64,000 bases of DNA from Chitinophaga pinensis (GCA_945888525.1 CAMDAF010000006.1:19489-83488), one strand, 5' to 3'; shown: positions 1 through 35,300, counted from the first letter of the stretch. The notes: a model not told the origin generated them from the letters alone. Translations and numbers: made by a program.

Positions 1-994
1 TCAGGTTACTAAAAATCTAAACAAAATTATTGACAACAATTATTACCCAGTAATCGAAGCGAAAAACTCTAACATGAAACACAGGCCAATCGGCATAGGT
101 GTGCAAGGATTGGCAGATGTTTTTATTTTATTGCGTTTGCCTTTTGAGAGTGAATCGGCCAAAGTATTGAATAAAAATATTTTTGAAACCATATACTTTG
201 CAGCTATGACAGCTAGTAAAGATTTGGCAAAAACACATGGACCCTACGAAACGTATGAAGGCTCACCAGTTTCTAAAGGAATCTTTCAATTTGACATGTG
301 GAATGTGAGCCCATCAGAACAATGGAATTGGAAAGCATTAAAAGAAGAAGTACAAAAGCACGGTGTACGAAATTCGCTTTTACTAGCGCCAATGCCCACT
401 GCTTCTACTTCTCAAATTTTCGGGAACAACGAATGTTTTGAACCCTATACATCCAACATTTATACACGAAGGGTTTTAAGTGGTGAATTTATCATCGTTA
501 ATAAGCATTTGTTGAAAGACCTAGTCAGCTTAGGTTTATGGGATAACAGCATGAAAAACAAAATCGTAGCCGCCAATGGCAGTATACAAAACATTGATGA
601 AATACCGGGCGATATTAAAGAGCTATACAAGACAGTTTGGGAAATAAAGCAACGTAACATCATCGATATGTCAGCCGATAGGGGTGCATTTGTTTGTCAA
701 TCGCAATCATTAAACCTATTTATTGACAATCCAAACACCTCTAAATTGACCTCAATGCACTTTCATGCTTGGAAAAGTGGCTTGAAAACAGGTATGTATT
801 ATTTGCGCACACAAGCTGCTTCGCAAGCTGTACAATTTACGGTAGAAAAGCAAGGCAATAATGAAGTAAGTCCGATAATTCCCATTGTTGCACCCACAAA
901 CGATTTAACAAATCTTAGCAAAGACATAGAACCAGTATTCAGTGAAGGTGCTGCTTGCTCCATGGAAGAAGGATGCATCAGCTGCGGTTCATAA
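1..994 (+). CDS. nrdA: Ribonucleotide reductase (class I) large subunit, C-terminal part; 5' end lies outside the window
   Basis: The frame is open from the window edge, since the track ORF at 74 is only an internal Met. An RNR-alpha-like core is followed by a C-terminal Cys-rich tail (EGCISCGS-stop) typical of class Ia large subunits. Confidence 0.75.
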
Positions 995-1261
995 GAAAAA
1001 AGCAAAAGTATTTGACTGTAAATAAACCTTAAAAGAAACCGACCTATCGGAGGGAAGCTTATGAAATTAGGTATGCTCTAAACCATCAGACTTTACCTTG
1101 TTACTCAACATGGCATTAGATTCCGTTTATGGAAATGCTTGGTTTAGAAATAGAATTTTGGCAATTAATGTTGGTCTTGCTACAGGAATAATAACAAAAA
1201 CAAACTTGCTTAATAAACAAAACCAACTAAATTTGTTTTGTTTATAGATTATACCACCCTA

Positions 1262-1753
1262 ATGAAAAACCCTATTCTTTTAATCTTCTTTTTAACTTAC
1301 AACTTAATCGCTATGTCAGAAACCAAAGTATACACCTGCAATGAATACGGCTCAAATAAAAAACAATTTATGAGCTTGGATGCCGGAAAAGTTTGCAGCA
1401 CCAATGAATACGGTTCCAACAAAAAGCAATTCATGTTTATAGAAGCGGGCAAAGTTTTTAACTGCAATGAATATGGATCAAACAAAAAGCAATTTATGCT
1501 GATTGAAGCGGGAAAGGCATATACCACCAATGAATACGGCAGCAACAAAAAACAATTTTTACTGATCGAAGCAGGAAAGGTATACACCACCAATGAGTAT
1601 GGTTCCAACAAAAAACAGATAGCCCTATACGAAGCCAATAAAATTTACACGACCAATGAATATGGAAGCAACAAAAAACAAATTGGCCTCATAGAAGGAG
1701 GTGCTAGCCTCGCTGAAATGGTGGTTATTATGTCGAGATTCGCATTGTTTTAA
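1262..1753 (+). CDS. Secreted/membrane tandem-repeat protein of unknown function, with six to seven 27-aa repeats (consensus TTNEYGSNKKQFMLIEAGKVY)
   Basis: The track ORF starts at TTG 1238. The in-frame ATG at 1262 gives a hydrophobic N-terminus (MKNPILLIFFLTYNLIA). The 81-nt DNA repeats differ mainly at synonymous positions (the GS dipeptide is encoded ggctca/ggttcc/ggatca/ggcagc), indicating selection on the protein sequence. Confidence 0.6.
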   Translation: MKNPILLIFFLTYNLIAMSETKVYTCNEYGSNKKQFMSLDAGKVCSTNEYGSNKKQFMFIEAGKVFNCNEYGSNKKQFMLIEAGKAYTTNEYGSNKKQFLLIEAGKVYTTNEYGSNKKQIALYEANKIYTTNEYGSNKKQIGLIEGGASLAEMVVIMSRFALF

Positions 1754-1792
1754 ATACTTATAAAAGTCCTTTAGAATTAGTAATCGAATAAA

Positions 1793-2461
1793 ATGAAAAC
1801 CATATTAATCATCCCGATTATCATTCTATGTGCTGTTATATCTATTATTTCTTGCAACAACAGTAGTAAGAAAATACCATTCTTTTCAAAAAAAGAAATC
1901 CCATACAAATCGGACACCATTTTGATTTTGAATTTGGAGTTTAAAGAGACCAAACTTTTAAAACCAATTATGGACAAGGTGACAAGTTTTTACCATTTGC
2001 CTGTCATTTTAAAATCCAGCCAACTTCCGCAATACGCTTATTACAAACCACGAAATAGATACCGTGCAGACTCTATTTTAAATTTTTTAGAACGGTATAA
2101 CAAAAACCATTTTCGTTTTATAGCGGCTTTAACCAGCAAAGACATCTCCCATACCAATACCCAAAAAAAAGTTAAGGATTATGGGATTATCGGCTTAGGC
2201 AGTACGAACAACAAAGGGTGCATCAGCTCTTCTTTTAAATTAAAGAAAAATGTTACAGAGGCAAAGTTTTTAGAAAGGTTGCAAAAAGTAACTCTTCATG
2301 AAATTGGACACAACCATGGCCTGACAAAAGTTCCCGGCCATCACTGCAGCAGTGCTTATCCTTGTTTCATGAAAGATGCAAAAGGCAAGTTAACTACAAT
2401 AGACAATTGGCCTATGGATCTTTGCAAAGATTGCAGGGATGAGATTGGTTTGAAACGTTAA
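1793..2461 (+). CDS. Archaemetzincin-like zinc metallopeptidase (peptidase M54 family), probable lipoprotein
   Basis: The motif HEIGHNHGL...HHCSSAYPCFM-(17 aa)-CKDC matches the archaemetzincin signature HExxHxxGxxHCx4-5CxMx17CxxC. The N-terminus is a signal peptide followed by Cys (IISCNNSS). Confidence 0.65.
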   Translation: MKTILIIPIIILCAVISIISCNNSSKKIPFFSKKEIPYKSDTILILNLEFKETKLLKPIMDKVTSFYHLPVILKSSQLPQYAYYKPRNRYRADSILNFLERYNKNHFRFIAALTSKDISHTNTQKKVKDYGIIGLGSTNNKGCISSSFKLKKNVTEAKFLERLQKVTLHEIGHNHGLTKVPGHHCSSAYPCFMKDAKGKLTTIDNWPMDLCKDCRDEIGLKR

Positions 2462-2625
2462 ATTATTTCGGGCAGAGATTTGCTTAAGAGTTTGTGTAAT
2501 AAGTAAAATATGGCCAGTAATCCTATGTACTAAACTATTACAAAAGTTCTATAAACTTCAATCACTTTTATATACTATTCATCCGTGTTTTTTCAAACAC
2601 ACATTATTTTCTTTTTAATTGTATG

Positions 2626-2633
2626 TATCTTTG
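2626..2633 (+). promoter_or_regulatory. Bacteroidetes-type -7 promoter element (TATCTTTG) upstream of ssrA
   Basis: It matches the TAnnTTTG consensus about 20 nt upstream of the mature tmRNA 5' end. Confidence 0.35.
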
Positions 2634-2652
2634 CAGTTCGTAAAAACCACAT

Positions 2653-3020
2653 GGGGCTGACCGGAATTGACGGGTAGAGCGAATGGGGTGTAAGCATGTA
2701 GAGCTTTGTTTGCTGGCTCTTTAATCTCAACACTCAAAACTTCAAGAGGCGAAAATAACTTCGCAATGGCTGCTTAATCAGTGATTAGGTAAATTTCCAT
2801 ACACTGTCGTTGCCCTTGTCTGGGTCGGTAACGGGTTACGGTGTTCGACATACCCGGGTATGCAAGCAGTGTTGCAGCGGCTGTTTGCATCACAAGTAGC
2901 ATAAGGTTGTGGCAAGGTCTGAAACCAAGCTTTCACAACTCGAAAAATAATGGTTTCTAAACATGTAGAAAGCGCCATCATTTCCTAGTTCGGACGAGGG
3001 TTCGATTCCCTCCAGCTCCA
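2653..3020 (+). ncRNA. ssrA: tmRNA (transfer-messenger RNA, SsrA)
   Basis: The 5' end GGGGCTGA...GACGGG and the 3' tRNA-like end GGACGAGGGTTCGATTCCCTCCAGCTCCA form an acceptor stem. An internal tag reading frame ggc gaa aat aac ttc gca atg gct gct taa encodes GENNFAMAA-stop. No protein ORF is plausible here. Confidence 0.85.
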
Positions 3021-3039
3021 CAAAAACATTCATTTCAAT

Positions 3040-3070
3040 GCTGACACGCAAGTGTCGGCATTTTTTGTTT
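3040..3070 (+). terminator. Rho-independent terminator of ssrA
   Basis: GCTGACAC-GCAA-GTGTCGGC is an 8-bp stem with a GNRA loop, followed by ATTTTTTGTTTT. Confidence 0.7.
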
Positions 3071-3113
3071 TAAAACAGCGTTGAAAGTCCTCTTTCATAA
3101 GCAGGATTAAAAC

Positions 3114-3450
3114 AAAAAAAGCTTTGAAAAAGCGCATTGAAATGAATGTTCTTGTAAGGCCCACCACCTCGGGAACAACAAAGTTATTCCCCTAATATCC
3201 TCATTCACTCTCTAGATGGGATTAAAAAAAGCTTTGAAAAAGCGCATTGAAATGAATGTTCTTGTTAGGCTCCCCAATTAGGGAACAACAAAGTTATTCC
3301 CCTTTGAACTTCACATTCACTCTCTACATGAAACAAAAAAAAACTTTTGAATAATAGCGCATTGAAATGAATGTTCTTGTTAGGCCCCCACCTCGGGAAC
3401 AACAAAGTTAATCCCCTTTGAATTTTAACCACAATCTCTACAAATGTTAC
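3114..3450. repeat. Tandem array of three ~110-115 bp repeats (about 85% identical) downstream of ssrA
   Basis: The unit is AAAAAAAGCTTTGAAAAAGCGCATTGAAATGAATGTTCTTGTTAGGCCCCCACCTCGGGAACAACAAAGTTATTCCCCT..., starting at about 3114, 3224 and 3339. Each unit carries the hairpin GGGAACAAC-AAA-GTTATTCCC. An inverted match (ACATTCATTTCAATGC) sits at 3028-3045, directly after the tmRNA 3' end. Confidence 0.7.
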
Positions 3451-3668
3451 ACCCCTATGGGGTTAAATCCTGAAACGCTTACTGCAACGAAGTGAAGCGT
3501 TCTCACGAGCTCGCTAGTAACTTAGCGTCAGCGTTCTCACGACCAGAGGGAGTACACCAACAAAATGTATCCATTTTAGCATTCGTTTTAATCAAGCATC
3601 ATCGAAAAACTACCCCCTAAACGCTAGACCCTATCCCCTAATTCATCCGTTTCCATTACCTTTGCTCC

Positions 3669-4868
3669 ATGTCCATCTCAATCGGTATCATTCGTGAAGA
3701 AAAACAACCCGCTGATAAACGCGCCGCCTTTACGCCAGCGCAGTGTGTTGATTTGAAGGCGCGATACCCTCAATTGCAAATCTTTATCCAATCGTCGAGC
3801 GACCGTTGCTTTTCTGATGAACTATACACCAAAGTGGGTGTTGAAATAAAAGAAGACCTGAGCAATTGCGATTTTTTATTTGGCATAAAAGAAGTTCCTG
3901 CCGATAAATTGATTGCCAATAAGACCTATTTGTTCTTTTCACATACAATCAAAAAACAAGCCCACAACAAAGACTTGATGCACGCCCTAATTGAAAAGAA
4001 AATCAAACTCATTGATTACGAAACCTTGCGTTGGAAAAACGGCGACCGTATACTTGGTTTTGGCCGCTTTGCTGGTGTAGTTGGCGCTTACAATGGCCTT
4101 ATCACTTGGGGTAAAAAACACAAGACTTTCGACCTTAAACCGGCCTACCAATGCAGCGATTATGCAGAGCTAAAACGCGAGCTTAAAAAAGCTGTTTTAC
4201 CAAATATAAAAATCATTCTTACTGGCAATGGCCGTGTGTCGTTGGGTGCACTAGAATTGTTAAACGAAGCTGGTATCAAACAGGTAACCCCAGCGGATAT
4301 TTTAACCAAGATATTTGCAGAACCCGTATTTGCGGTTTTGTTAAGTGAAAACTTATACGAGCGCATCGATGGTAAAGCCTATGACAGAAGCGATTTTCAC
4401 CACGATCCAACCCGTTACCGTTGTGTGTTCAGATACTATTTACCGCAATGCGATTTGTTGATTAATGGCATTTACTGGGACGAGCACATGGACCGCTTGT
4501 TTTCTGAAAACGACACCCGTTTAAGCACCTTTAAAACCAAAGTGATTGCCGACATCAGTTGTGATGTAAATGGCGGTGTTCCTATCACTTTAAAAGACAC
4601 CAAAATATTTGATCCTGTATTTGGGTACGACCCCATGTCAATGAGCATGTGCGAGCCGTATTTAGACCATACCATCGATATTATGGCGGTGGGCAATCTA
4701 CCAACTGAATTACCCCGCGATGCCAGCGAAGGCTTTGGCGCTATGCTCATCGAATATGTACTACCAGAACTCCTCAAAATCGAAAGCACCGTGATCGAAA
4801 ATGCCTGCATTTGCAAAGACGGAAAGCTGACGCATGAGTATGCGTATTTGACGGACTATGCGTATTAG
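3669..4868 (+). CDS. Saccharopine dehydrogenase (L-lysine-forming, LYS1-like), AlaDH/PNT fold
   Basis: The N-terminus IIREEKQPADKRAAFTP, and the stretches FGIKEVPAD and FGRFAGVVGAYNGL, parallel yeast Lys1 (HLRAETKPLEARAALTP, IIGLKEMPE, FGFYAGFAGAALGV). Confidence 0.55.
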   Translation: MSISIGIIREEKQPADKRAAFTPAQCVDLKARYPQLQIFIQSSSDRCFSDELYTKVGVEIKEDLSNCDFLFGIKEVPADKLIANKTYLFFSHTIKKQAHNKDLMHALIEKKIKLIDYETLRWKNGDRILGFGRFAGVVGAYNGLITWGKKHKTFDLKPAYQCSDYAELKRELKKAVLPNIKIILTGNGRVSLGALELLNEAGIKQVTPADILTKIFAEPVFAVLLSENLYERIDGKAYDRSDFHHDPTRYRCVFRYYLPQCDLLINGIYWDEHMDRLFSENDTRLSTFKTKVIADISCDVNGGVPITLKDTKIFDPVFGYDPMSMSMCEPYLDHTIDIMAVGNLPTELPRDASEGFGAMLIEYVLPELLKIESTVIENACICKDGKLTHEYAYLTDYAY

Positions 4869-4990
4869 GGTCTAGGGGTTAGGGTCTAGGGTTTAGTAAT
4901 TAAACATGATGCATCTTTATTTCGTTATCTAATTTTATCGCGTTTTATACGAGGGTTTAGGGTCTAGGGGCATAGGGTTTAGTATGTAAT
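4866..4990 (+). repeat. Two tandem copies of a G-rich repeat element with canonical G-quadruplex spacing (GGG-TCTA-GGGG-TTA-GGG-TCTA-GGG)
   Basis: The copy at 4868-4891 begins at the stop codon of the upstream gene. The second copy, 4953-4977, is GGG-TTTA-GGG-TCTA-GGGG-CATA-GGG. Both are followed by similar ~50-bp AT-rich tails, making a tandem duplication of about 85 bp. Confidence 0.6.
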
Positions 4991-5126
4991 TGTGATGCTT
5001 AATTGTTTCGTTTTTTATAGTTTTAACATGACCTTTTTATATATAGAAGAAATCATAATTATTATCTTCTTTTAAATTGGGAGATTCAACTCTTAAAAAA
5101 CGTAAAGCTCAAGTTTCCTCAATAAA

Positions 5127-5187
5127 AACTAAACCCTAACCCCTACTTGCCCATCGGAGTGAAACGCAGGTGGGTACCCTAGACCCT
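5127..5187 (-). repeat. Copy of the ~62-bp G-rich element (AGGGTCTAGGGTACC...GGCAAGTAGGGGTTAGGGTTTAG), minus orientation
   Basis: Its reverse complement aligns with the element at 6391-6452. It lies immediately 3' of the minus-strand gene 5236-5877, in sense orientation. Confidence 0.6.
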
Positions 5188-5235
5188 TGTAAAGCCCTTC
5201 CTGAATAATAAAAAAAGACGAAATCAACTTTGGCT

Positions 5236-5877
5236 TTACTCCCTCCATATAAACCTCACCAACACCAATCCCATAACCACAATCAAAACATTGAAGGCCA
5301 TAAGGACCAATAGGTCGGGAAGCAGGATCGAGAAACCGAGTTCATCGATGGCTTTTTTGCCAGCCTTGGAACCAATTAAAATCAAAGGCAAAATAACGGG
5401 AAAAGTTAAGACCGGCAATAAGACACCAGGATTATCGGTTTTGGTGGCTATGCTGCTGCTAATGGTAAAGATAGATGAAATACCTATGCCAGTAACCAGG
5501 CAGACCAATAAAAAACTAGGACCGCCTTCGCTCACTTGACCATGCATTAAGGTGAAAACCGCGTAAGCGAATAAGGTAAAGACAATCATTAAGAGCGCCG
5601 AACAAATTAAACGCGCGGCTAAAAAGTCGACAGGCGAACATATTTGATGCCAAAAAACGAAATTGTTTTTGCGCATTTGGATGAAGGATTTGGAGATGCC
5701 TTGCAGGGTGGTGAACACCACAACGATCCAGAAAATCGCACTAAAATGGGGCCTGTCCATGCCTGGCAAGCTTAAAAAAGTAATGAGCACAGCAGTGAAG
5801 ATGTAAAGAAAAGCACCGACAATAGCGTATTTGCCTTTCCATTCTTCTCTCAAAAAAAATTTCACCATTTCTACCAT
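5236..5877 (-). CDS. Polytopic membrane protein (about 6 TM), possibly a CcmB-like ABC-type heme exporter permease
   Basis: The 213-aa protein is mostly hydrophobic helices. Its size and topology resemble CcmB. The family assignment is uncertain. Confidence 0.35.
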   Translation of the reverse strand: MVEMVKFFLREEWKGKYAIVGAFLYIFTAVLITFLSLPGMDRPHFSAIFWIVVVFTTLQGISKSFIQMRKNNFVFWHQICSPVDFLAARLICSALLMIVFTLFAYAVFTLMHGQVSEGGPSFLLVCLVTGIGISSIFTISSSIATKTDNPGVLLPVLTFPVILPLILIGSKAGKKAIDELGFSILLPDLLVLMAFNVLIVVMGLVLVRFIWRE

Positions 5878-5930
5878 TGTGTCAAAGCTAAAAAATTGTA
5901 CTTTTGCGCAAAAGTAATATAAACATTTGT

Positions 5931-6386
5931 ATGCTCAGCAAAATAGAACATTTATCGTCAGCAGAAAAAAACTTAATTGTTAATGCACCTCTACTAATTT
6001 CAGCCTTGGTGTCTGGTTCTGATGGTGAATTCACCCCTAGCGAAATCCAACAAGCCGTTAAAATCATCCACATCAAAACCTATTCTGAAACCCGCGATGT
6101 GAGTGGTGTATACAAAACAGTTGACGGACACACTGAAGAAAGCATAGAAATGTTAATTAGCTCTTTGCCTGAATCAACGACCGAAAGAAACGAAATGTTA
6201 ATCTCTATGCTGAAAGGCTTAAATGATGTATTTCCGAAACTAGACAACGTCTTCGCACACGATTTATACAGCAGTTTGAAAGAACTTGCATTTTACGTCA
6301 GCAACGCTGGCGACGACCTAGGCCTAAGTATCCGTTCTGAGCAAGAAAAAGAAATGGCGCAGTTGTCATTTTTGGACGCACAGTAA
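5931..6386 (+). CDS. Hypothetical protein
   Basis: The track ORF starts at TTG 5904. The first ATG is at 5931 (MLSKIEHL...). No recognisable motif was seen. Confidence 0.45.
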   Translation: MLSKIEHLSSAEKNLIVNAPLLISALVSGSDGEFTPSEIQQAVKIIHIKTYSETRDVSGVYKTVDGHTEESIEMLISSLPESTTERNEMLISMLKGLNDVFPKLDNVFAHDLYSSLKELAFYVSNAGDDLGLSIRSEQEKEMAQLSFLDAQ

Positions 6387-6390
6387 AGCC

Positions 6391-6452
6391 AGGGGCTAGG
6401 GTACCTACCTTCGTTTCACTCATGCAGGCAAGTAGGGGTTAGGGTTTAGTTT
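6391..6452 (+). repeat. Copy of the ~62-bp G-rich element, plus orientation, immediately 3' of gene 5931-6386
   Basis: AGGGGCTAGGGTACCTACCTTCGTTTCACTC...GGCAAGTAGGGGTTAGGGTTTAG is about 85% identical to the inverted copy at 5127-5187. Confidence 0.6.
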
Positions 6453-6572
6453 TGTACAAAACATCCAACCTAACTTCTCTATTTTCTTATTTTAAAGTTT
6501 CTTTATTTAATTTCCTATAGGGAAAACAAAAGGCATTTAGATATTGTTTATGTACGTCGATTACCGAAATCC

Positions 6573-6622
6573 AAACTATACCCTATCCCGATAGCTTTCG
6601 GGAGCTATACCCCTAAACCCTC
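6573..6622 (-). repeat. Variant G-rich element (AGGGTTTAGGGG-hairpin-GGGATAGGG) immediately 3' of the GT2 gene, sense orientation
   Basis: The minus strand reads AGGGTTTAGGGGTATAGCTCCCGAAAGCTATCGGGATAGGGTATAG. A central hairpin (GATAGC...GCTATC) is flanked by two GGG pairs. Confidence 0.5.
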
Positions 6623-6635
6623 TTTTGAGCTCTGC

Positions 6636-7388
6636 TCAAAATAAGGGTATAAAATCCTCCGGCTTCAAGCTCTTATGGTAATGGTGTATAAAATCAGGTT
6701 CCTTTCTGCGGATGCACCCAACGCCATTTTTGTAGTATTCAAAAAACAAAAGCCAATCTTCTTTACCCCAATCTGTGATGCTTTCGTCGTAGCCCCCAAG
6801 ATCTAAAAACTGCTGGCGTTGGCTTGCCATAATACCAGTTCCCTCAGACATAAAATGACCGGTGCCATCTTGGTGGGTAAACCAAATTTGCGGAAACCAA
6901 GCTGAATATTTTCCGCTGTAACGGTTTACTTTTTCAAGTACATCTATAGGCACTGACATATCGGCATCGCAGACCAAGATTAAATTATTGCTAGCCTGTT
7001 TTACCGCTGCATTAAAACTGATGCTGCGCGCAAAATTTTGAGGCACTTCAGCATAAACCAATTTACCTTTCCATGCCTTGCGAATTTCTTGAACTAAATT
7101 TTGCACATCATCGCTGCCGCAGTCGAATACTGAGAGTTCTATGCAATCTAAATTTGCGCAGGCATTTAAAGACGGAATGAGATGGCTTAGCAAATTATGG
7201 CTGCGGTTTTTTATTCCAACGCAAACACTAATGGCTTGTAAATTATTTGGCCTTTTTCTGGTGGCATACCAAGCTTTAAAGTCGCTTAATACCGACGAAA
7301 ACCCAACCCATTTTCTTTGTGGTGATTTGAATACAAACCACAAAAATTGTTTGAAGGGTTTCGGCAATAAACGCTTTAAAAAACTCAT
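6636..7388 (-). CDS. Glycosyltransferase family 2 (GT-A fold)
   Basis: A DxD-like CDADM motif and a WGKEDW motif recall the WGGEDDD of galactosyltransferase-type GT2 C-terminal domains. A 4-nt overlap with xth suggests translational coupling. Confidence 0.6.
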   Translation of the reverse strand: MSFLKRLLPKPFKQFLWFVFKSPQRKWVGFSSVLSDFKAWYATRKRPNNLQAISVCVGIKNRSHNLLSHLIPSLNACANLDCIELSVFDCGSDDVQNLVQEIRKAWKGKLVYAEVPQNFARSISFNAAVKQASNNLILVCDADMSVPIDVLEKVNRYSGKYSAWFPQIWFTHQDGTGHFMSEGTGIMASQRQQFLDLGGYDESITDWGKEDWLLFFEYYKNGVGCIRRKEPDFIHHYHKSLKPEDFIPLF

Positions 7389-8143
7389 TTTATTTCAGCG
7401 TACAAACCGCAATGGTCGCTGTGCACATAAGCGTTCAAAATACCAGCATTTGAAAGGCGCTCGCGAATACTATCACCGATTGAAATGTAATCGATTCTCC
7501 ATCCCTTGTTGCGCTCACGGGCGGCCGTTCTAAAGCTCCACCAAGTGTAATGGTGTGGATCTTGGTTAATCAACCTAAAACTATCGTGCATACCGCTGCC
7601 AAACCATTGGTCCATCCAAGCCCTTTCTTCAGGCAAAAATCCACTGGAATTTTTATTGCCAATTGGATCGTGAATATCGATATCATTATGGCAAATGTTG
7701 TAATCGCCGCATACCAATAACTTGTCTTTATTCGGATCGTTTTGAATAAAATGATTGAAGGCTTCTAAAAATTCATACTTCACTTGTTGGCGGATATCGC
7801 CGGTAGTGCCAGAAGGGAAATAGGCACTGATAACTTCGCAGTTTTCGAACACGGCTTTGATCACACGTCCTTCGGAATCGAAAAGCTTATGCCCCATGCC
7901 TTTAACAACTGATTTGGCTTTTTCTTTGCTCAGAATCCCAACACCACTGTACCCTTTTTTTTCGGCAGGAAACCAATAGCAATGGTAACCCAAAGCTTCC
8001 AAAGCAGCTTGATCAATGTCTTGCTCTTGCGCCTTTAATTCTTGTAGACAAACGGTATCGGGATTTTCTTCTTTTAAAAAATCAACAAACCCTTTAGACA
8101 TGGCAGAACGAATGCCGTTTACGTTGTATGAAATGATTTTCAT
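7385..8143 (-). CDS. xth: Exodeoxyribonuclease III (AP endonuclease)
   Basis: The N-terminus MKIISYNVNGIRSA, 252 aa, is ExoIII/APE1 family across the full length. Confidence 0.9.
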   Translation of the reverse strand: MKIISYNVNGIRSAMSKGFVDFLKEENPDTVCLQELKAQEQDIDQAALEALGYHCYWFPAEKKGYSGVGILSKEKAKSVVKGMGHKLFDSEGRVIKAVFENCEVISAYFPSGTTGDIRQQVKYEFLEAFNHFIQNDPNKDKLLVCGDYNICHNDIDIHDPIGNKNSSGFLPEERAWMDQWFGSGMHDSFRLINQDPHHYTWWSFRTAARERNKGWRIDYISIGDSIRERLSNAGILNAYVHSDHCGLYAEIK

Positions 8144-8190
8144 TAGACAACAAACTTAAGGTATTTTTTGAGCTTGAAAAAGCCCGAGAA

Positions 8191-9057
8191 TTAATTTCTA
8201 TTGTCCATACCCCACAACATTTTGTGGCGCAAGGTTTTTAAGAAAGTATCGCCTTCAAAACGCACCAAATTGATGTGAAAATCGGCTTTGCGAATCGCTA
8301 TTTGTATGGTTTGATCGATGGTAACCGAACGGCTGTCTAAAGAGGCTAAAAAATTGGCGCTGCGGCCTTCTATTTCAAAACTCAAAACTTGATCATCTGG
8401 AATAATAACCGGCCTTACATTTAGATTGTGCGGGGCAATTGGCGTAACCACCAAACTGGAGGATTTTGGGAACAATATAGGACCACCGCAACTCAAAGAG
8501 TAACCTGAAGAGCCGGTTGGTGTTGATACAATAAGTCCATCGGCCCAATAGGAATTCAAAGGTTCTCCATTTAAAAAGGCATGAACGGTAATCATGCTAC
8601 TGGTTTCTTTTTTATGCAAAACAAAATCGTTGAGCGCATAGTTAAAACGGAACAAATCGGCGTTGCTTTCAAGTTGTAGCAGCGAGCGTTTGTCTAATGA
8701 ATAATTACCCCCTTTAAGTTCCTTAAATGCCTGAATAAACCCGTCGGTGGATACATTGGCCAAGAAACCCAAACGGCCAGTGTTTACACCAATAATTGGC
8801 ACTTGACTATCGCCTGTTATTTCCACTGCACTAAGTATGGTACCATCGCCGCCCACACTAATCAAAAAATCAAGTTCAGCCGATTTCTTGCTGAGGTATT
8901 CAAACTCTGGCAATCCATATTTATTTTCAAGACAAGAAGCCAAATGGCTATGCAAATAAAGATCAACCTGCTCGGAAAGCAAGAAAACAATTATGTCATC
9001 CATCAACTTTACTTGTTCGGGCGTGTTAACGACTTTGGTGAATAAACCGATTTTCAT
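8191..9057 (-). CDS. nadK: NAD+ kinase
   Basis: It has the GGDGTIL motif and an NDFVL region. The 288-aa length is typical of PpnK/NadK. Confidence 0.9.
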   Translation of the reverse strand: MKIGLFTKVVNTPEQVKLMDDIIVFLLSEQVDLYLHSHLASCLENKYGLPEFEYLSKKSAELDFLISVGGDGTILSAVEITGDSQVPIIGVNTGRLGFLANVSTDGFIQAFKELKGGNYSLDKRSLLQLESNADLFRFNYALNDFVLHKKETSSMITVHAFLNGEPLNSYWADGLIVSTPTGSSGYSLSCGGPILFPKSSSLVVTPIAPHNLNVRPVIIPDDQVLSFEIEGRSANFLASLDSRSVTIDQTIQIAIRKADFHINLVRFEGDTFLKTLRHKMLWGMDNRN

Positions 9058-9175: not shown

Positions 9176-9262
9176 CGCGCCCCGATGACCGACGTGGAGC
9201 TCTTGTGGCGCTTCGGCCACAAAGCCGCAGCGAAGCGGAGACAAAGGACATGGAAAGGCGCC
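9176..9262 (-). repeat. GC-rich ~87-bp repeat element (copy 1) with conserved hairpin TTGTGGC-GCTTCG-GCCACAA, 3' of ndk in sense orientation
   Basis: Its reverse complement is about 90% identical to 25643-25729. GC content is about 60% against an AT-rich background. The track ORF 9097-9279 overlapping it is not conserved in copy 2. Confidence 0.6.
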
Positions 9263-9319
9263 ATAAAAAAAGCACCCACTTTCGTAGATGCTTTCTTTAG
9301 AATTATTTTCTATAATGGT

Positions 9320-25549: not shown

Positions 25550-25642
25550 TTTTACAATAAGGACATTCTAAGGGATGTCTCTCTATTTATTGCATAAGAC
25601 TGTAATGGGAGTTTAGTGATATATAAACATTCAACTTTTTTG

Positions 25643-25729
25643 GGCGCCTTTCCCGAGCCCTTTGTCTGCGCTCCGCTGCGGCTTTGTGGCCAAAGCGCCA
25701 CAAGAGCTACACGTCGGTCATCGGGGCGC
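25643..25729 (+). repeat. GC-rich ~87-bp repeat element (copy 2) 3' of infB in sense orientation
   Basis: GGCGCCTTTCCCGAGCCCTTTGTCTGCGCTCCGCTGCGGCTTTGTGGCCAAAGCGCCACAAGAGCTACACGTCGGTCATCGGGGCGC is about 90% identical to the reverse complement of 9176-9262 and carries the same hairpin. Confidence 0.6.
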
Positions 25730-31098: not shown

Positions 31099-33000
31099 TT
31101 AAGGCATATTGGCCTTTAACTTCATTAAGAAACCAATTTCACTTTCCTTAAGAAATCTCCACTTACCTCTTGGCAAATCTTTCTTTGTAAATATACCCAT
31201 GCTTACGCGGTCAAGTCTCTCAACATCGTAACCCAAATGTTCAAACATTCGTCTTACGACACGGTTTTTACCACTATGGATCTCAATGCCTACATTGCGT
31301 TTGTCTTCGTTGTCAACAAAGGCAACTGCATCAGCATGTACAACGCCATCTTCCAATTCAATACCTTCAACCAATTTATCCAAGTCGGTTCCACTTACTT
31401 TCTTATCCAATACGGCGTGGTAAACTTTCTTAATTTGGAATGATGGATGCGTTAAGGCTTGCGCCACATCTCCATCATTGGTTAGCAACAATACACCTGT
31501 TGTATTTCTGTCCAAACGACCAATTGGGTATACCCTTTGAGGGATTTTATCGGCCAATAAATCCAAAACCGTTTTACGTCCTTTTTCGTCATCTGTGGTC
31601 GTTATAAAATCTTTTGGCTTATTCATTAAAATGTAAACAAATGGCTCGGGTAAAATTTTTCTTCCGTCAAATTTAACCACATCCCCTTTCTTTACGCGGT
31701 GTCCCATTTCTGTCACAACCGTGCCATTGATATTTACCAAACCTTGTTTGATCACATCATCAGCCTCTCTTCTGCTGCAAACACCAGAATTGGCAATATA
31801 TTTATTCAAGCGAATGTCATCGGGACTGTCTTGGGTACCCGTTAATTCCTTCTTTCTATCTGAGTATGATTTTCTAATTTGAACCTGCGGATCGTATTTT
31901 GGTCTGAATGGCTTACTTTCTTCACCCTCTGGTTTAAAAGGTCTTTTTGGTCCTTGATCATCTGCATTTCTGCGGTAGTTGTTGGATTTTCCAGCATAAG
32001 AACTGTCTCGGCTATCGCCTTCTCTCTTTTGATAAGGCGCTTTGCCGTCAGCATTGCGGTCGAAACCAGGCTTTTTATAGCCCCCTTCGCTTGATTCTCT
32101 TTTTTTGTAAGGCGAATATCCACCGCCTTGATCACCTGATTTAGAATAAGCTGACTTTTTATAGCCCCCTTCTTCTGAAGCACCTTCGCGCTTTTTGTAT
32201 GGAGAGTATCCGCCACCATCGTTAGATCCAGGTTTCTTGTATCCACCATCTCGGGCGCTGTCTTCTCTTTTCTTATATGGCGCTCTGCCGTTGCCATCTT
32301 CTGAATTTCTTGGGTAACTTGGTTTCTTAAAATCAGAATCTCCATATCCACCTTCCCGTTTTTTGAACGGAGGTCTGCTTCCACCATCTTCAGATGTTCT
32401 TGGGTAACTTGGCTTTTTGTATCCTGTATCTCCAAACCCTCCTTCTTTCTTTTTGTATGGGGGTCTGCTTCCGCCTTCTTCTGAATTTCTTGGATAGCTT
32501 GGTTTCTTAAAATCAGAATCTCCATATCCACCTTCCCGTTTTTTGAACGGAGGTCTGCTTCCACCATCTTCAGATGTTCTTGGGTAACTTGGTTTTTTGT
32601 ATCCTGTATCTCCAAACCCTCCTTCTTTCTTTTTGTATGGAGGTCTGCTTCCACCTTCTTCAGAATTTCTTGGATAGCTTGGTTTACGGGTATCTGAGTT
32701 AAATCCTCTATCTTCACGGTCGCTGCCATATCCCCTGCCAGCTGGTTTTACTCCTCGGCTATCAGGACTTTTGCGGCCATATGGTTTATTGCCATCGCGA
32801 GGAGGCAAGAAACGGGGCGGTGCTAATTCATTTGAATCGTCATTGGTTCTTGGTTTTTTGAACGAAGAATCTCTTCCTCCAAATTTCGAATTTGAATCTG
32901 AACGGCCGGCAGTTTTTTTATAAGAAGCAGCTGGCTTTCGACCATCTGATTTCTTAAAGGGTCCTGAAGACTTTCCCGAGTTATTTTTACGTAAAGGCAT
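31099..33000 (-). CDS. rluB: RluB-family 23S rRNA pseudouridine synthase with ~390-aa N-terminal K/R/G/Y/P-rich tandem-repeat extension
   Basis: The C-terminal half carries an S4 domain (IRLNKYIANSGVCSRREADDVI) and an RsuA/RluB catalytic core (LDRNTTGVLLLTNDGD). The N-terminal half consists of KKPSYPRNSEEGGSRPPYKKKEGGFGDTGY-type repeats. Confidence 0.75.
   Translation of the reverse strand: MPLRKNNSGKSSGPFKKSDGRKPAASYKKTAGRSDSNSKFGGRDSSFKKPRTNDDSNELAPPRFLPPRDGNKPYGRKSPDSRGVKPAGRGYGSDREDRGFNSDTRKPSYPRNSEEGGSRPPYKKKEGGFGDTGYKKPSYPRTSEDGGSRPPFKKREGGYGDSDFKKPSYPRNSEEGGSRPPYKKKEGGFGDTGYKKPSYPRTSEDGGSRPPFKKREGGYGDSDFKKPSYPRNSEDGNGRAPYKKREDSARDGGYKKPGSNDGGGYSPYKKREGASEEGGYKKSAYSKSGDQGGGYSPYKKRESSEGGYKKPGFDRNADGKAPYQKREGDSRDSSYAGKSNNYRRNADDQGPKRPFKPEGEESKPFRPKYDPQVQIRKSYSDRKKELTGTQDSPDDIRLNKYIANSGVCSRREADDVIKQGLVNINGTVVTEMGHRVKKGDVVKFDGRKILPEPFVYILMNKPKDFITTTDDEKGRKTVLDLLADKIPQRVYPIGRLDRNTTGVLLLTNDGDVAQALTHPSFQIKKVYHAVLDKKVSGTDLDKLVEGIELEDGVVHADAVAFVDNEDKRNVGIEIHSGKNRVVRRMFEHLGYDVERLDRVSMGIFTKKDLPRGKWRFLKESEIGFLMKLKANMP
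31830..32830. repeat. Coding tandem repeats (180-nt unit, two near-identical copies plus degenerate copies) inside the rluB-like 5' half
   Basis: Nucleotides 32290-32470 and 32470-32650 are nearly identical. The purine-rich repeats also keep a second frame open (track ORF 31842-32729). Confidence 0.7.
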
Positions 33001-35109: not shown

Positions 35110-35174
35110 CAACTAACTCCACTAACATCCTGTGGCATTGAAAGACCAGAAACAAACACTGAATCTGAAGCAAT

Positions 35175-35300
35175 GAAAAAAGGTCGGCAAAGCTATTGAT
35201 TTTTTCATGGCCTCAAGACCATAAAAAAAGGTCGGCAAACTACTGATTTTTTAATGGTCTCAAGACCATAAAAAAAGGTCGGCAAAGCCGACCTTTCTTA
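35175..35300. repeat. About 2.5 tandem copies of a 47-bp hairpin-containing repeat between ahpC and rplS
   Basis: The unit is AAAAAAAGGTCGGCAAAGCTATTGATTTTTTCATGGCCTCAAGACCAT, with the palindrome ATGGTCTCAAGACCAT. The last partial unit forms GGTCGGC-AAA-GCCGACC, followed by a T-run on the minus strand. Confidence 0.6.
35277..35300 (-). terminator. Probable terminator of rplS
   Basis: The 7-bp GC stem GGTCGGC/GCCGACC is followed on the minus strand by TTTTTTT, 35 nt downstream of the rplS stop. Confidence 0.5.

Follow-up and report, generated by a model that had tools for sequence, protein, structure and literature searches.

Telomere-like heptamer arrays at gene ends of a marine Bacteroidota are probably lineage-specific DNA repeats of a known class

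The 64-kb window analysed here (64,000 nucleotides, CAMDAF010000006.1:19489-83488 of assembly GCA_945888525.1) comes from the core chromosome of an uncultured marine Bacteroidota. Six G-rich elements are packed within ~3 kb of it, around three neighbouring genes, and all six are short tandem arrays of the 7-nucleotide units TAGGGTC, TAGGGTT and TAGGGGT (TAGGGTY/TAGGGGT). An earlier sequence-only reading had noticed five of them near 4868-6622, described them as always lying 3' of a stop codon in sense orientation, and argued from this orientation for a function at the RNA level. The five elements are real, with limits refined to those in Table 1, and the genes to which they were assigned (lysine dehydrogenase, a CcmB-like gene, a hypothetical gene and a GT2 glycosyltransferase) are correct. 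Our preferred interpretation, to which we give a probability of about 0.6, is that the elements are lineage-specific heptamer arrays of microsatellite type, a DNA-level feature belonging to a known class (the short tandemly repeated repetitive, STRR, sequences and the Xanthomonas and Nostoc repeats) and not a conserved RNA gene, and that their origin and multiplication were recent and local. The observations that carry it are the period-7 structure of the arrays, their clustering, the relatedness of the copies, their absence from relatives, the inversion of a two-gene segment between two of them, and the exchange of alleles between strains.

Array #1 (numbering as in Table 1) has exactly the spacing G3-N4-G4-N3-G3-N4-G3, and array #2 has four tracts separated by 4-nucleotide loops; these are the two copies for which G-quadruplex (G4) spacing had been claimed. 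Both are direct repeats with no dyad, and Tandem Repeats Finder reported period-7 arrays at 4865-4896 and 4952-4982. Arrays #3, #4 and #5, previously described as two GGG pairs split by a spacer or hairpin, consist of 2+2 G-tracts about a core of 33, 32 and 20 nucleotides respectively, the core always standing between tracts 2 and 3; #3 and #4 have the common layout GGGNCTAGGG, 33/32-nucleotide core, GGGGTTAGGGTTTAG. A 17-nucleotide consensus, with up to three mismatches allowed, matched the window ten times against 0.43 matches expected from shuffles, and none of 100 shuffled sequences reached ten, in agreement with the view that such G-tracts are unlikely by chance. All ten matches fall at 3.6-6.5 kb; array #5 was missed by the consensus and found by a scan for GGG pairs (6581-6620). 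There were no further arrays in the other 57 kb of the window, in 6 kb upstream or in 10 kb downstream, a total of ~80 kb of this lineage. A G4Hunter-type score (our own implementation) placed #6, #1 and #2 as the three highest sites in the window and #5 below threshold.

The units are identical to the telomere repeats of plants (TTTAGGG) and vertebrates (TTAGGG) and have the same G4 potential, and some matches in metagenome-assembled genomes (MAGs) elsewhere are long arrays at contig ends. Chance, an assembly artefact or contamination by eukaryotic telomeres can nevertheless be excluded for the window with near certainty: the same arrays occupy the same places in ten independent assemblies, they are embedded among bacterial genes and share a stop codon with one of them, and their number far exceeds that in shuffles. 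They are internal, of 2-4 units, and unrelated to replicon ends or telomerase; the resemblance to telomeres is one of sequence only. The terminal arrays elsewhere are long (TTTAGGG/TTAGGGG)n runs at contig ends of Bacteroidota MAGs (Ferruginibacter, Phaeodactylibacter; L088 5-21, L128 6562-6648 and L028 3485-3545), which could be mis-binned eukaryotic telomeres or linear replicon ends.

The copies are related to one another. An 86-bp tandem duplication (units 4882-4931 and 4968-5017, 74% identity) makes #2 a second copy of #1, and #1, #2 and #6 have a common non-repeat tail, RTGATGCWT..ATT...CG; DNA duplication therefore links the copies, and few observations of their orientation are independent. 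Arrays #3 and #4 are inverted relative to each other and 87% complementary over 63 nucleotides (89% by blastn), with a 33-nucleotide core common to both. This core had no other copy in any fetched locus, and the spacers gave no match beyond the arrays themselves.

A near-identical locus was found in at least ten ENA metagenome assemblies, of which contig ERZ27280265:k141_1969781 is identical to the window across the 14.9 kb compared. Variation was followed in a strain set of ten metagenome contigs (L001-L010) with an overall divergence of only ~1%. Array #5 contains an 18-nucleotide palindrome in the window, L001, L003, L004, L006 and L007 (GGGGTATAGC-TCCCGAAAGCTATCGGGA-TAGGG) and is without it in L005, L008, L009 and L010 (allele 5B, GGGTTTAGGGTCTAGCGTCTAGGGTATAG, i.e. 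GGGTCTAGCGTCTAGGG between identical flanks). At array #6 the majority allele is GGGTCTAGCGTTTAGGGGGTAG, and a palindrome-containing allele, GGGTCTAGC-TCCCGAAAGCTTTCGGAA-TTGGGCATAG, is present in L003 and L005. All four combinations of #5 and #6 alleles were seen among the strains. Alleles with and without the palindrome differ by replacement of 3-10 nucleotides plus neighbouring bases, not by a clean insertion with target duplication. In some alleles a G-tract is replaced by GCG, and 5B and 6A/6B have only three G-tracts, so that G4 potential is not strictly maintained. Assemblies also break at the arrays: two contigs end in #6, and one scaffold is gapped in both #5 and #6. In L006, the left flank (1-8204) is wholly unlike the window (DUF4139, Usp and radical SAM genes) and is joined ~90 nucleotides upstream of array #6 (window upstream of 3519); either the contig is chimeric or the DNA near the arrays has truly been rearranged.

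For comparison with relatives, seven loci were fetched (L251-L257, up to 21 kb each) in which the lysine/saccharopine-dehydrogenase-like gene (lysDH) is 75-83% identical to that of the window; they are more distant than the Xanthomonas genomes Xcc and Xac are from each other. Five of the seven (L251, L252, L253, L256 and L257) keep the neighbours in the order lysDH(+), hypothetical-153(-), CcmB(+), followed by GT2(-) in four and by an OmpA-family gene in L253. The order in the window is lysDH(+), CcmB(-), hypothetical(+), GT2(-), the block exactly between #3 and #4 being inverted. No heptamer array was present in any of the seven relatives, including the five syntenic ones, in which gene ends overlap, abut or have plain hairpin terminators (e.g. 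AAAAAACGCTCCGGTTAGGAGCGTTTTTT in L257). In the window, the convergent spacers are enlarged to 367 and 249 nucleotides, representing ~620 nucleotides of new spacer. The proteins encoded in the window and in the relatives are orthologous, with 56-73% identity, in line with their neighbours. The C-terminus of the lysDH product (..DYAY*) is unchanged; its stop codon became TAG, the first repeat unit, where the relatives use TAA or TGA. In a lysDH tree, the window groups with L256 and L255, inside the group having the other gene order; the inversion is therefore derived in the lineage of the window. More distant lysDH homologues, considered as outgroups for the inversion, showed no synteny.

Since inverted repeats of 63 nucleotides, 87-89% identical, bound exactly the segment that is inverted relative to the relatives, #3 and #4 could be seen as the ends of a programmed invertible segment serving phase variation, as in Bacteroides invertons or shufflons. 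We regard this as very improbable. The segment has one orientation in 10/10 strain contigs, and no recombinase gene lies nearby; among the 54 open reading frames (ORFs) of the 64-kb window there is no transposase, recombinase, reverse transcriptase or REP-associated tyrosine transposase (RAYT). Moreover, inversion would have no switching effect, as the segment consists of two complete, divergently transcribed genes together with their common promoter region.

Table 1. Positions of the arrays, the palindrome, neighbouring genes and palindrome/partial tRNA sites. Window coordinates unless a contig is named.
Feature	Position	Strand	Description
Array #6	3610-3641	-	G strand TTAGGGGATAGGGTCTAGCGTTTAGGGGGTAG; three intact G-tracts and one GCG
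Array #1	4866-4896	+	TAGGGTCTAGGGGTTAGGGTCTAGGGTTTAG; four G-tracts, uninterrupted
Array #2	4953-4982	+	GGGTTTAGGGTCTAGGGGCATAGGGTTTAG; four G-tracts, uninterrupted
Array #3	5125-5187	-	63-nt composite: GGGTCTAGGG, 33-nt core TACCCACCTGCGTTTCACTCCGATGGGCAAGTA, then GGGGTTAGGGTTTAG; left inverted repeat of the inverted segment
Array #4	6391-6453	+	63-nt composite homologous to #3; right inverted repeat of the inverted segment
Array #5	6576-6620	-	GGGTTTAGGGGTATAGC + palindrome + TAGGGTATAG
Palindrome P, 18 nt, near-perfect	6586-6603	.	TCCCGAAAGCTATCGGGA on the minus strand; within array #5
lysDH, lysine/saccharopine-dehydrogenase-like gene (AlaDh_PNT_N)	3669-4868	+	Between arrays #6 and #1
CcmB-like gene	5236-5877	-	In inverted segment
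Hypothetical gene (hypothetical-153 in relatives)	5931-6386	+	In inverted segment
Two-gene segment, CcmB-like/hypothetical	5188-6390	.	Inverted relative to all syntenic relatives
GT2 glycosyltransferase gene	6636-7388	-	3' end toward array #5; stop 6636-6638
tmRNA gene	2653-3023		Rfam match; array #6 lies between it and lysDH
Palindrome/partial tRNA site	L195 ~990-1145		
Palindrome/partial tRNA site	L208 ~5170-5290		
Palindrome/partial tRNA site	L207 ~305-470		
Palindrome/partial tRNA site	L228 ~4000-4120		
Palindrome/partial tRNA site	L235 ~4520-4690		

The position of the arrays relative to genes is less uniform than had been reported. The first TAG of array #1 is the stop codon of lysDH (distance 0), #4 lies 5 nucleotides after the stop of the hypothetical gene and #5 lies 15 nucleotides after that of GT2; for these copies a location at or within a few nucleotides of a stop holds, roughly so for #5. 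It does not hold for #3, 48 nucleotides after the CcmB-like stop, nor for #2, which lies 84 nucleotides after the lysDH stop and, as the second unit of the 86-bp duplication, has no gene of its own. The rule that the elements are always sense and 3' of a stop describes #1-#5 and overlooks #6, which is antisense, 27 nucleotides upstream of the lysDH ATG (3669), between the tmRNA gene and lysDH, and not 3' of any stop codon. This array covers the expected -33 region of the lysDH promoter. A TAnnTTTG box, which we take to be the Bacteroidota -7 promoter element, stands 4 nucleotides before the lysDH ATG in the window (3657-3664) and 4-10 nucleotides before it in three relatives (L255, L256 and L257). 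Its position suggests that the lysDH mRNA is leaderless or nearly so, and would place array #6 over the upstream half of the promoter, outside the lysDH mRNA.

In 6/6 arrays, the G strand points away from the ORF next to it. The arrays lie in two convergent spacers, where they form inverted pairs, and upstream of one promoter. With #1 and #2 being duplicates and two inverted pairs occupying two convergent intergenic regions, the number of independent observations of orientation is ~2, not five. A telomere-like motif with a seemingly perfect orientation rule can thus stem from very few independent events.

Arrays of the same kind occur widely in other genomes. A scan of species-representative genome contigs for the exact 17-mer TAGGGGTTAGGGTTTAG returned at least 120 loci. 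Among the listed matches are Bacteroidota, Cyanobacteriota, Acidobacteriota, Patescibacteria, Planctomycetota, Nitrospirota, Chloroflexota, Firmicutes, Spirochaetota, Proteobacteria and others, the arrays being found in >15 bacterial phyla; nearly all listed matches lie within longer G3-4N3-4 heptamer arrays, many of them accompanied by a C-rich partner in inverted orientation. Arrays of Nostoc linckia (L097) and Floridaenema (L109) pass without a break from TAGGGKT units to classical STRR1-type GGGGACT units, from which it appears that different G-rich heptamers interconvert or coexist within a single array.

Orientation statistics were compiled for 293 arrays in 120 loci of other genomes, using crude ORF calls. 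The G strand led away from the adjacent ORF in 84 cases and toward it in 34, and the nearest ORF was on the 5' side of the G strand in 88 cases versus 37 on the 3' side (p = 6e-6). Within 60 nucleotides of a start codon, 46 arrays were antisense and 7 sense (p = 4e-8), whereas within 60 nucleotides of a stop codon 38 were sense and 27 antisense (p = 0.21). The strong asymmetry elsewhere is therefore an avoidance of the sense strand upstream of starts. Inverted pairs in which the G-rich member comes first did not differ significantly in number from those in which the C-rich member does (62:46).

These tendencies agree with those published for the G-rich heptameric repeats GGGAATC of Xanthomonas and GGGGA(C/T)T of Nostoc, in which the G strand is directed away from the nearby ORF, four units are preferred, and the repeats lie near a stop on the coding strand or near a start on the non-coding strand, sometimes overlapping stop codons and forming convergent inverted pairs, with a function that is unexplained (Rehm et al. 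2015, PLoS One 10:e0144275). Transcript starts and ends in Xanthomonas coincide with such repeats more often than with control sites, whichever strand is transcribed (Rehm et al. 2015). The arrays described here resemble these repeats in being intergenic tandem 7-nucleotide units with a G3-4 run, in their preference for four G-tracts, in stop codon overlap and in their convergent inverted pairs. Arrays #1, #3, #4 and #5 (0, 48, 5 and 15 nucleotides) and #6 (27 nucleotides, antisense) occupy the published positions, and only #2 (84 nucleotides) falls outside them; four tracts are contiguous in #1 and #2 and arranged as 2+2 in #3-#5, while #6 and alleles 5B and 6B have three. There are also differences. 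The unit here is TAGGGTY/TAGGGGT, the host a marine Bacteroidota, and three copies are interrupted by non-repeat cores. The published repeats number ~180 copies genome-wide, as opposed to six within 3 kb here (~80 kb scanned); ~90% of the Xcc repeats are conserved in Xac, as opposed to none in our seven relatives; and regions containing them show increased stability, as opposed to the association with rearrangement seen here.

Three other systems are similar in part. The cyanobacterial STRR heptamers, reportedly described by Mazel and colleagues in 1990 (e.g. CCCCAGT), are likewise intergenic tandem heptamers with a G/C-run; they differ in unit and phylum, and STRR arrays are numerous genome-wide. 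Repetitive extragenic palindromic (REP) repeats (GTAG- and CGTC-tagged) follow ORFs, in most cases where the flanking genes are convergent or co-directional, and often form dimers of opposite orientation, 20-100 bp apart, that fold into larger structures, a repeat end often providing a TAG stop (Di Nocera et al. 2013, BMC Genomics 14:522). Our arrays are also downstream of ORFs, form inverted dimers and donate a TAG stop. Unlike REP sequences and bacterial interspersed mosaic elements (BIMEs), however, they are direct heptamer repeats, not imperfect palindromes of 20-40 nucleotides, their copies are few and clustered, and no RAYT/Y1 transposase accompanies them in the window. The G4 at Neisseria pilE initiates recombination (cited in Rehm et al. 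2015) and is similar in that a quadruplex-forming sequence beside genes is tied to DNA recombination; it is a single defined G4 acting in programmed gene conversion, whereas the link between array and inversion here is circumstantial.

We propose that slippage, duplication and gene conversion gave rise to the arrays and multiplied them within this 3-kb neighbourhood, and that recombination between the inverted copies #3 and #4 then flipped the CcmB-like/hypothetical segment. Selection would tolerate an array only if its G strand points away from the ORF beside it, the arrangement avoided being G-richness of the sense strand immediately before a start codon. This order of events and this selective filter are what we infer; such a constraint, combined with the inverted-pair layout in two convergent spacers, would generate the apparent rule of always sense and 3' of stops. 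The arrays are probably not required for these genes. Any effect on expression would be secondary, the arrays now standing where relatives have hairpin terminators or overlapping gene ends.

Several observations weigh against an origin as DNA repeats subject only to such a filter. A neutral or selfish model alone does not explain why the G strand leads away from the ORF on the stop side too, and among arrays of at least four tracts within 60 nucleotides of a stop in the other genomes, the excess of sense (32) over antisense (17) is significant (p = 0.04). Arrays #1-#4 are the same in 10/10 strain contigs, save one substitution in the #3 core of two of them, which argues against a high rate of slippage, although the divergence is only ~1%. 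With no intermediate lineage found at 83%-98% identity, the arrays may have come either before the inversion or with it. The whole lysDH/CcmB spacer folds far better than its shuffles (z = -4.4, 0/100), as does, to a lesser degree, the hypothetical/GT2 spacer (z = -2.3). Finally, relatives have terminators where the arrays sit, and termination may thus have passed to the arrays.

A long stem between a G array and its C-rich inverted partner is predicted for each whole spacer. Because the spacers fold better than shuffles, a structural role in RNA or in single-stranded DNA is plausible; on these predicted folds, the spacers could plausibly mark boundaries in read-through RNA, or form a cruciform or G4 in DNA. 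It is possible, therefore, that the arrays mark transcript boundaries through the stem that the G array and its partner would form in read-through RNA.

A more specific proposal is that the G-rich mRNA strand acts as an RNA 3'-end module, forming a G4 (with or without a central-loop hairpin) that blocks 3' exonucleases or aids termination. Five of the six copies are sense and 0-84 nucleotides from a stop, #1 and #2 combine canonical G4 spacing with top G4 scores in the window, the 2+2 layout is kept wherever there is a core, and a T-run follows three of the arrays; hairpin terminators at the same places in relatives, and the excess of transcript ends at Xanthomonas repeats, are also consistent with it. 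Yet array #6 is antisense, upstream of the putative promoter -7 box and thus outside the lysDH mRNA, #5 is under the G4 threshold, alleles 5B and 6A/6B have lost a G-tract, the arrays are absent from all close relatives, 27/65 stop-proximal arrays in other genomes are antisense, and the effect on transcript ends in Xanthomonas is independent of the strand transcribed (Rehm et al. 2015). Rfam matched nothing except the tmRNA, either in the whole window at the gathering threshold or in 3000-7000 at E<=1. Single arrays folded no better than shuffles, with the exception of #1 (z = -2.9); no intrinsic terminator (G+C-rich hairpin and T-run) was found at the four gene ends, and a scan for consensus terminators and promoters was blank at the arrays. 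We consider such a module unlikely. The step from strict sense orientation to RNA-level function is only partly supported. It retains a real orientation tendency, published for this class of repeat, and a possible effect on transcript ends; strictness itself is lost with #6 and with the 38:27 ratio at stops elsewhere, and the signs of duplication, exchange and inversion are at the level of DNA.

The one rule that covers both the stop-side sense and the start-side antisense positions belongs to a different model, in which the arrays are polar transcription insulators. An incoming polymerase would meet a G-rich template and make C-rich, G-poor RNA, and would be stopped by a G4 roadblock on the template strand or through a Rho loading site, while an outgoing polymerase would pass unblocked. 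An array would in this way protect the gene beside it against read-through from convergent or upstream transcription. No other model unites the two positions, and the rule fits 6/6 copies here, the 84 versus 34 arrays elsewhere and the published repeats (Rehm et al. 2015). The arrays occupy two convergent spacers and a site before a promoter, as expected of insulators, and the lineage encodes Rho: its gene lies at 6884-8674 of L260, a contig that overlaps the window, a few kb past the window's high-coordinate end. All of this support is geometric, however. Relatives with overlapping convergent genes do without an insulator, G-first and C-first inverted pairs are about equal elsewhere, and pairing with the G arm could mask the C arm when both are in a single read-through RNA. 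We regard polar insulation as a doubtful explanation for the locus.

The core of array #5 is an instance of a palindrome, TCCCGAWAGCTWTCGGGA, with a perfect 18-nucleotide form TCCCGATAGCTATCGGGA and a variant TCCCGAAAGCTTTCGGGA. The same palindrome lies within a G-heptamer array of a Bacteroidales MAG (L042 4938-4952), within a different tandem repeat of a Chitinophagales MAG (L049 3458-3472), and also within arrays elsewhere, L149 among them. A metagenome scan found it in at least 120 contigs (L131-L250) of 30-55% G+C, at sites that include the tips of hairpins, tandem repeats and larger repeated units (L178, L226 and L247). Its two central positions co-vary, with 107 T..A, 23 A..T and one hybrid among 131 instances, which shows that palindromy is maintained. 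Its flanks are ~10x enriched for direct repeats, indicating insertion in tandem repeats, and for complementary extensions, indicating hairpin tips; most instances have neither. A preference for TAGC targets was tested and rejected (4.7% versus 2.8% in controls). No paper containing the palindrome sequence was found in a literature search, and it may be an undescribed small dispersed element of Bacteroidota.

At five sites (Table 1), the palindrome stands in place of the D-loop in decayed partial tRNA copies, each with an intact tRNA (Phe, Leu, Ala, Met, Val) 15-60 nucleotides downstream. The L207 site is inside a 16S-23S spacer, and the pseudo-tRNA copy in L235 retains an anticodon-like stem with different bases. 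In L145 (1047-1130), the palindrome interrupts a tRNA-Gln in a tRNA cluster, and its deletion in silico restores the tRNA. The idea that the palindrome generally splits intact tRNA genes was dropped, as deletion restored a tRNA only in L145, the others being decayed partial copies beside intact tRNAs.

Elhai and colleagues reportedly found in 2008 that the small dispersed repeats (SDRs) of Nostoc are often embedded in tandem heptameric repeats, undergo compensatory changes that keep their hairpins, and vary between close strains; they are said to be 21-27 nucleotides long and confined to one cyanobacterial subgroup. These resemble the palindrome in being tiny hairpins in heptamer arrays, with compensatory changes and with presence or absence between close strains (#5, some #6 alleles). 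The palindrome differs in being 18 nucleotides long, in occurring in Bacteroidota where the taxon is known, and in that its alleles are replacements.

On a further model, the arrays, the palindrome and the 33-nucleotide core would be products or landing pads of very small mobile elements like the SDRs, with a machinery encoded outside the window. Strains differ in having or lacking the palindrome at two sites, and it recurs in identical form in arrays of two other Bacteroidota orders and in the 120 or more metagenome contigs, with co-varying central positions and enriched flanks as described. We think this model quite unlikely as an account of the arrays, given that alleles differ by replacement with no clean insertion, that the 33-nucleotide core has no further copy in the fetched loci, that 64 kb contain no transposase-like gene, and that the insert-free arrays #1 and #2 need no such element.

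A broader and rather speculative version would see the arrays in >15 phyla and the palindrome TCCCGAWAGCTWTCGGGA across Bacteroidota as traces of gene-less micro-mobile DNA that rebuilds gene ends, through terminator replacement, stop codons, orientation-dependent transcription barriers and inversions, and that inserts in hairpin loops including the D-loops of redundant tRNA copies. If this is true, which we doubt, the "smallest mobile elements", so far a feature of Nostoc alone, would have counterparts in another phylum and a genome-shaping role.

The first G-rich heptameric repeats beside bacterial ORFs (STRR) date from 1990, and detailed mapping followed in 2015, with their function still unexplained. 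This locus offers a natural before-and-after comparison, with ordinary terminators or overlapping gene ends in the relatives versus arrays, ~620 nucleotides of spacer and an inversion in the window. Three questions become testable at it: whether the arrays replace terminators, insulate convergent genes, or simply promote rearrangement.

The window as a whole has a G+C content of ~39% and encodes GldH, many proteins sorted by the type IX secretion system (T9SS), IF-2, aconitase and RuvA. It holds several repeats besides the heptamer arrays. The tmRNA gene and its terminator hairpin (3037-3062) are followed immediately by a 110-nucleotide unit repeated 2.8 times in tandem at 3110-3422 (84% matches), the copy number or sequence of which varies among the strain contigs. 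A G+C-rich intergenic element of 94 nucleotides, holding a GTGGC..GCCAC hairpin, occurs twice in inverted orientation with 85% identity (9177-9270 and 25636-25729), and scaffold gaps in four other assemblies coincide exactly with the copy at 9177-9270. Further tandem repeats comprise a 63-nucleotide unit present 5-6 times at 1324-1701, within the ORF at 1262-1753; a 90-nucleotide unit present five times at 32262-32711, within an S4/pseudouridine-synthase ORF (31099-33000); and a 47-nucleotide unit present three times at 35173-35290, in the spacer between the peroxiredoxin and L19 genes.

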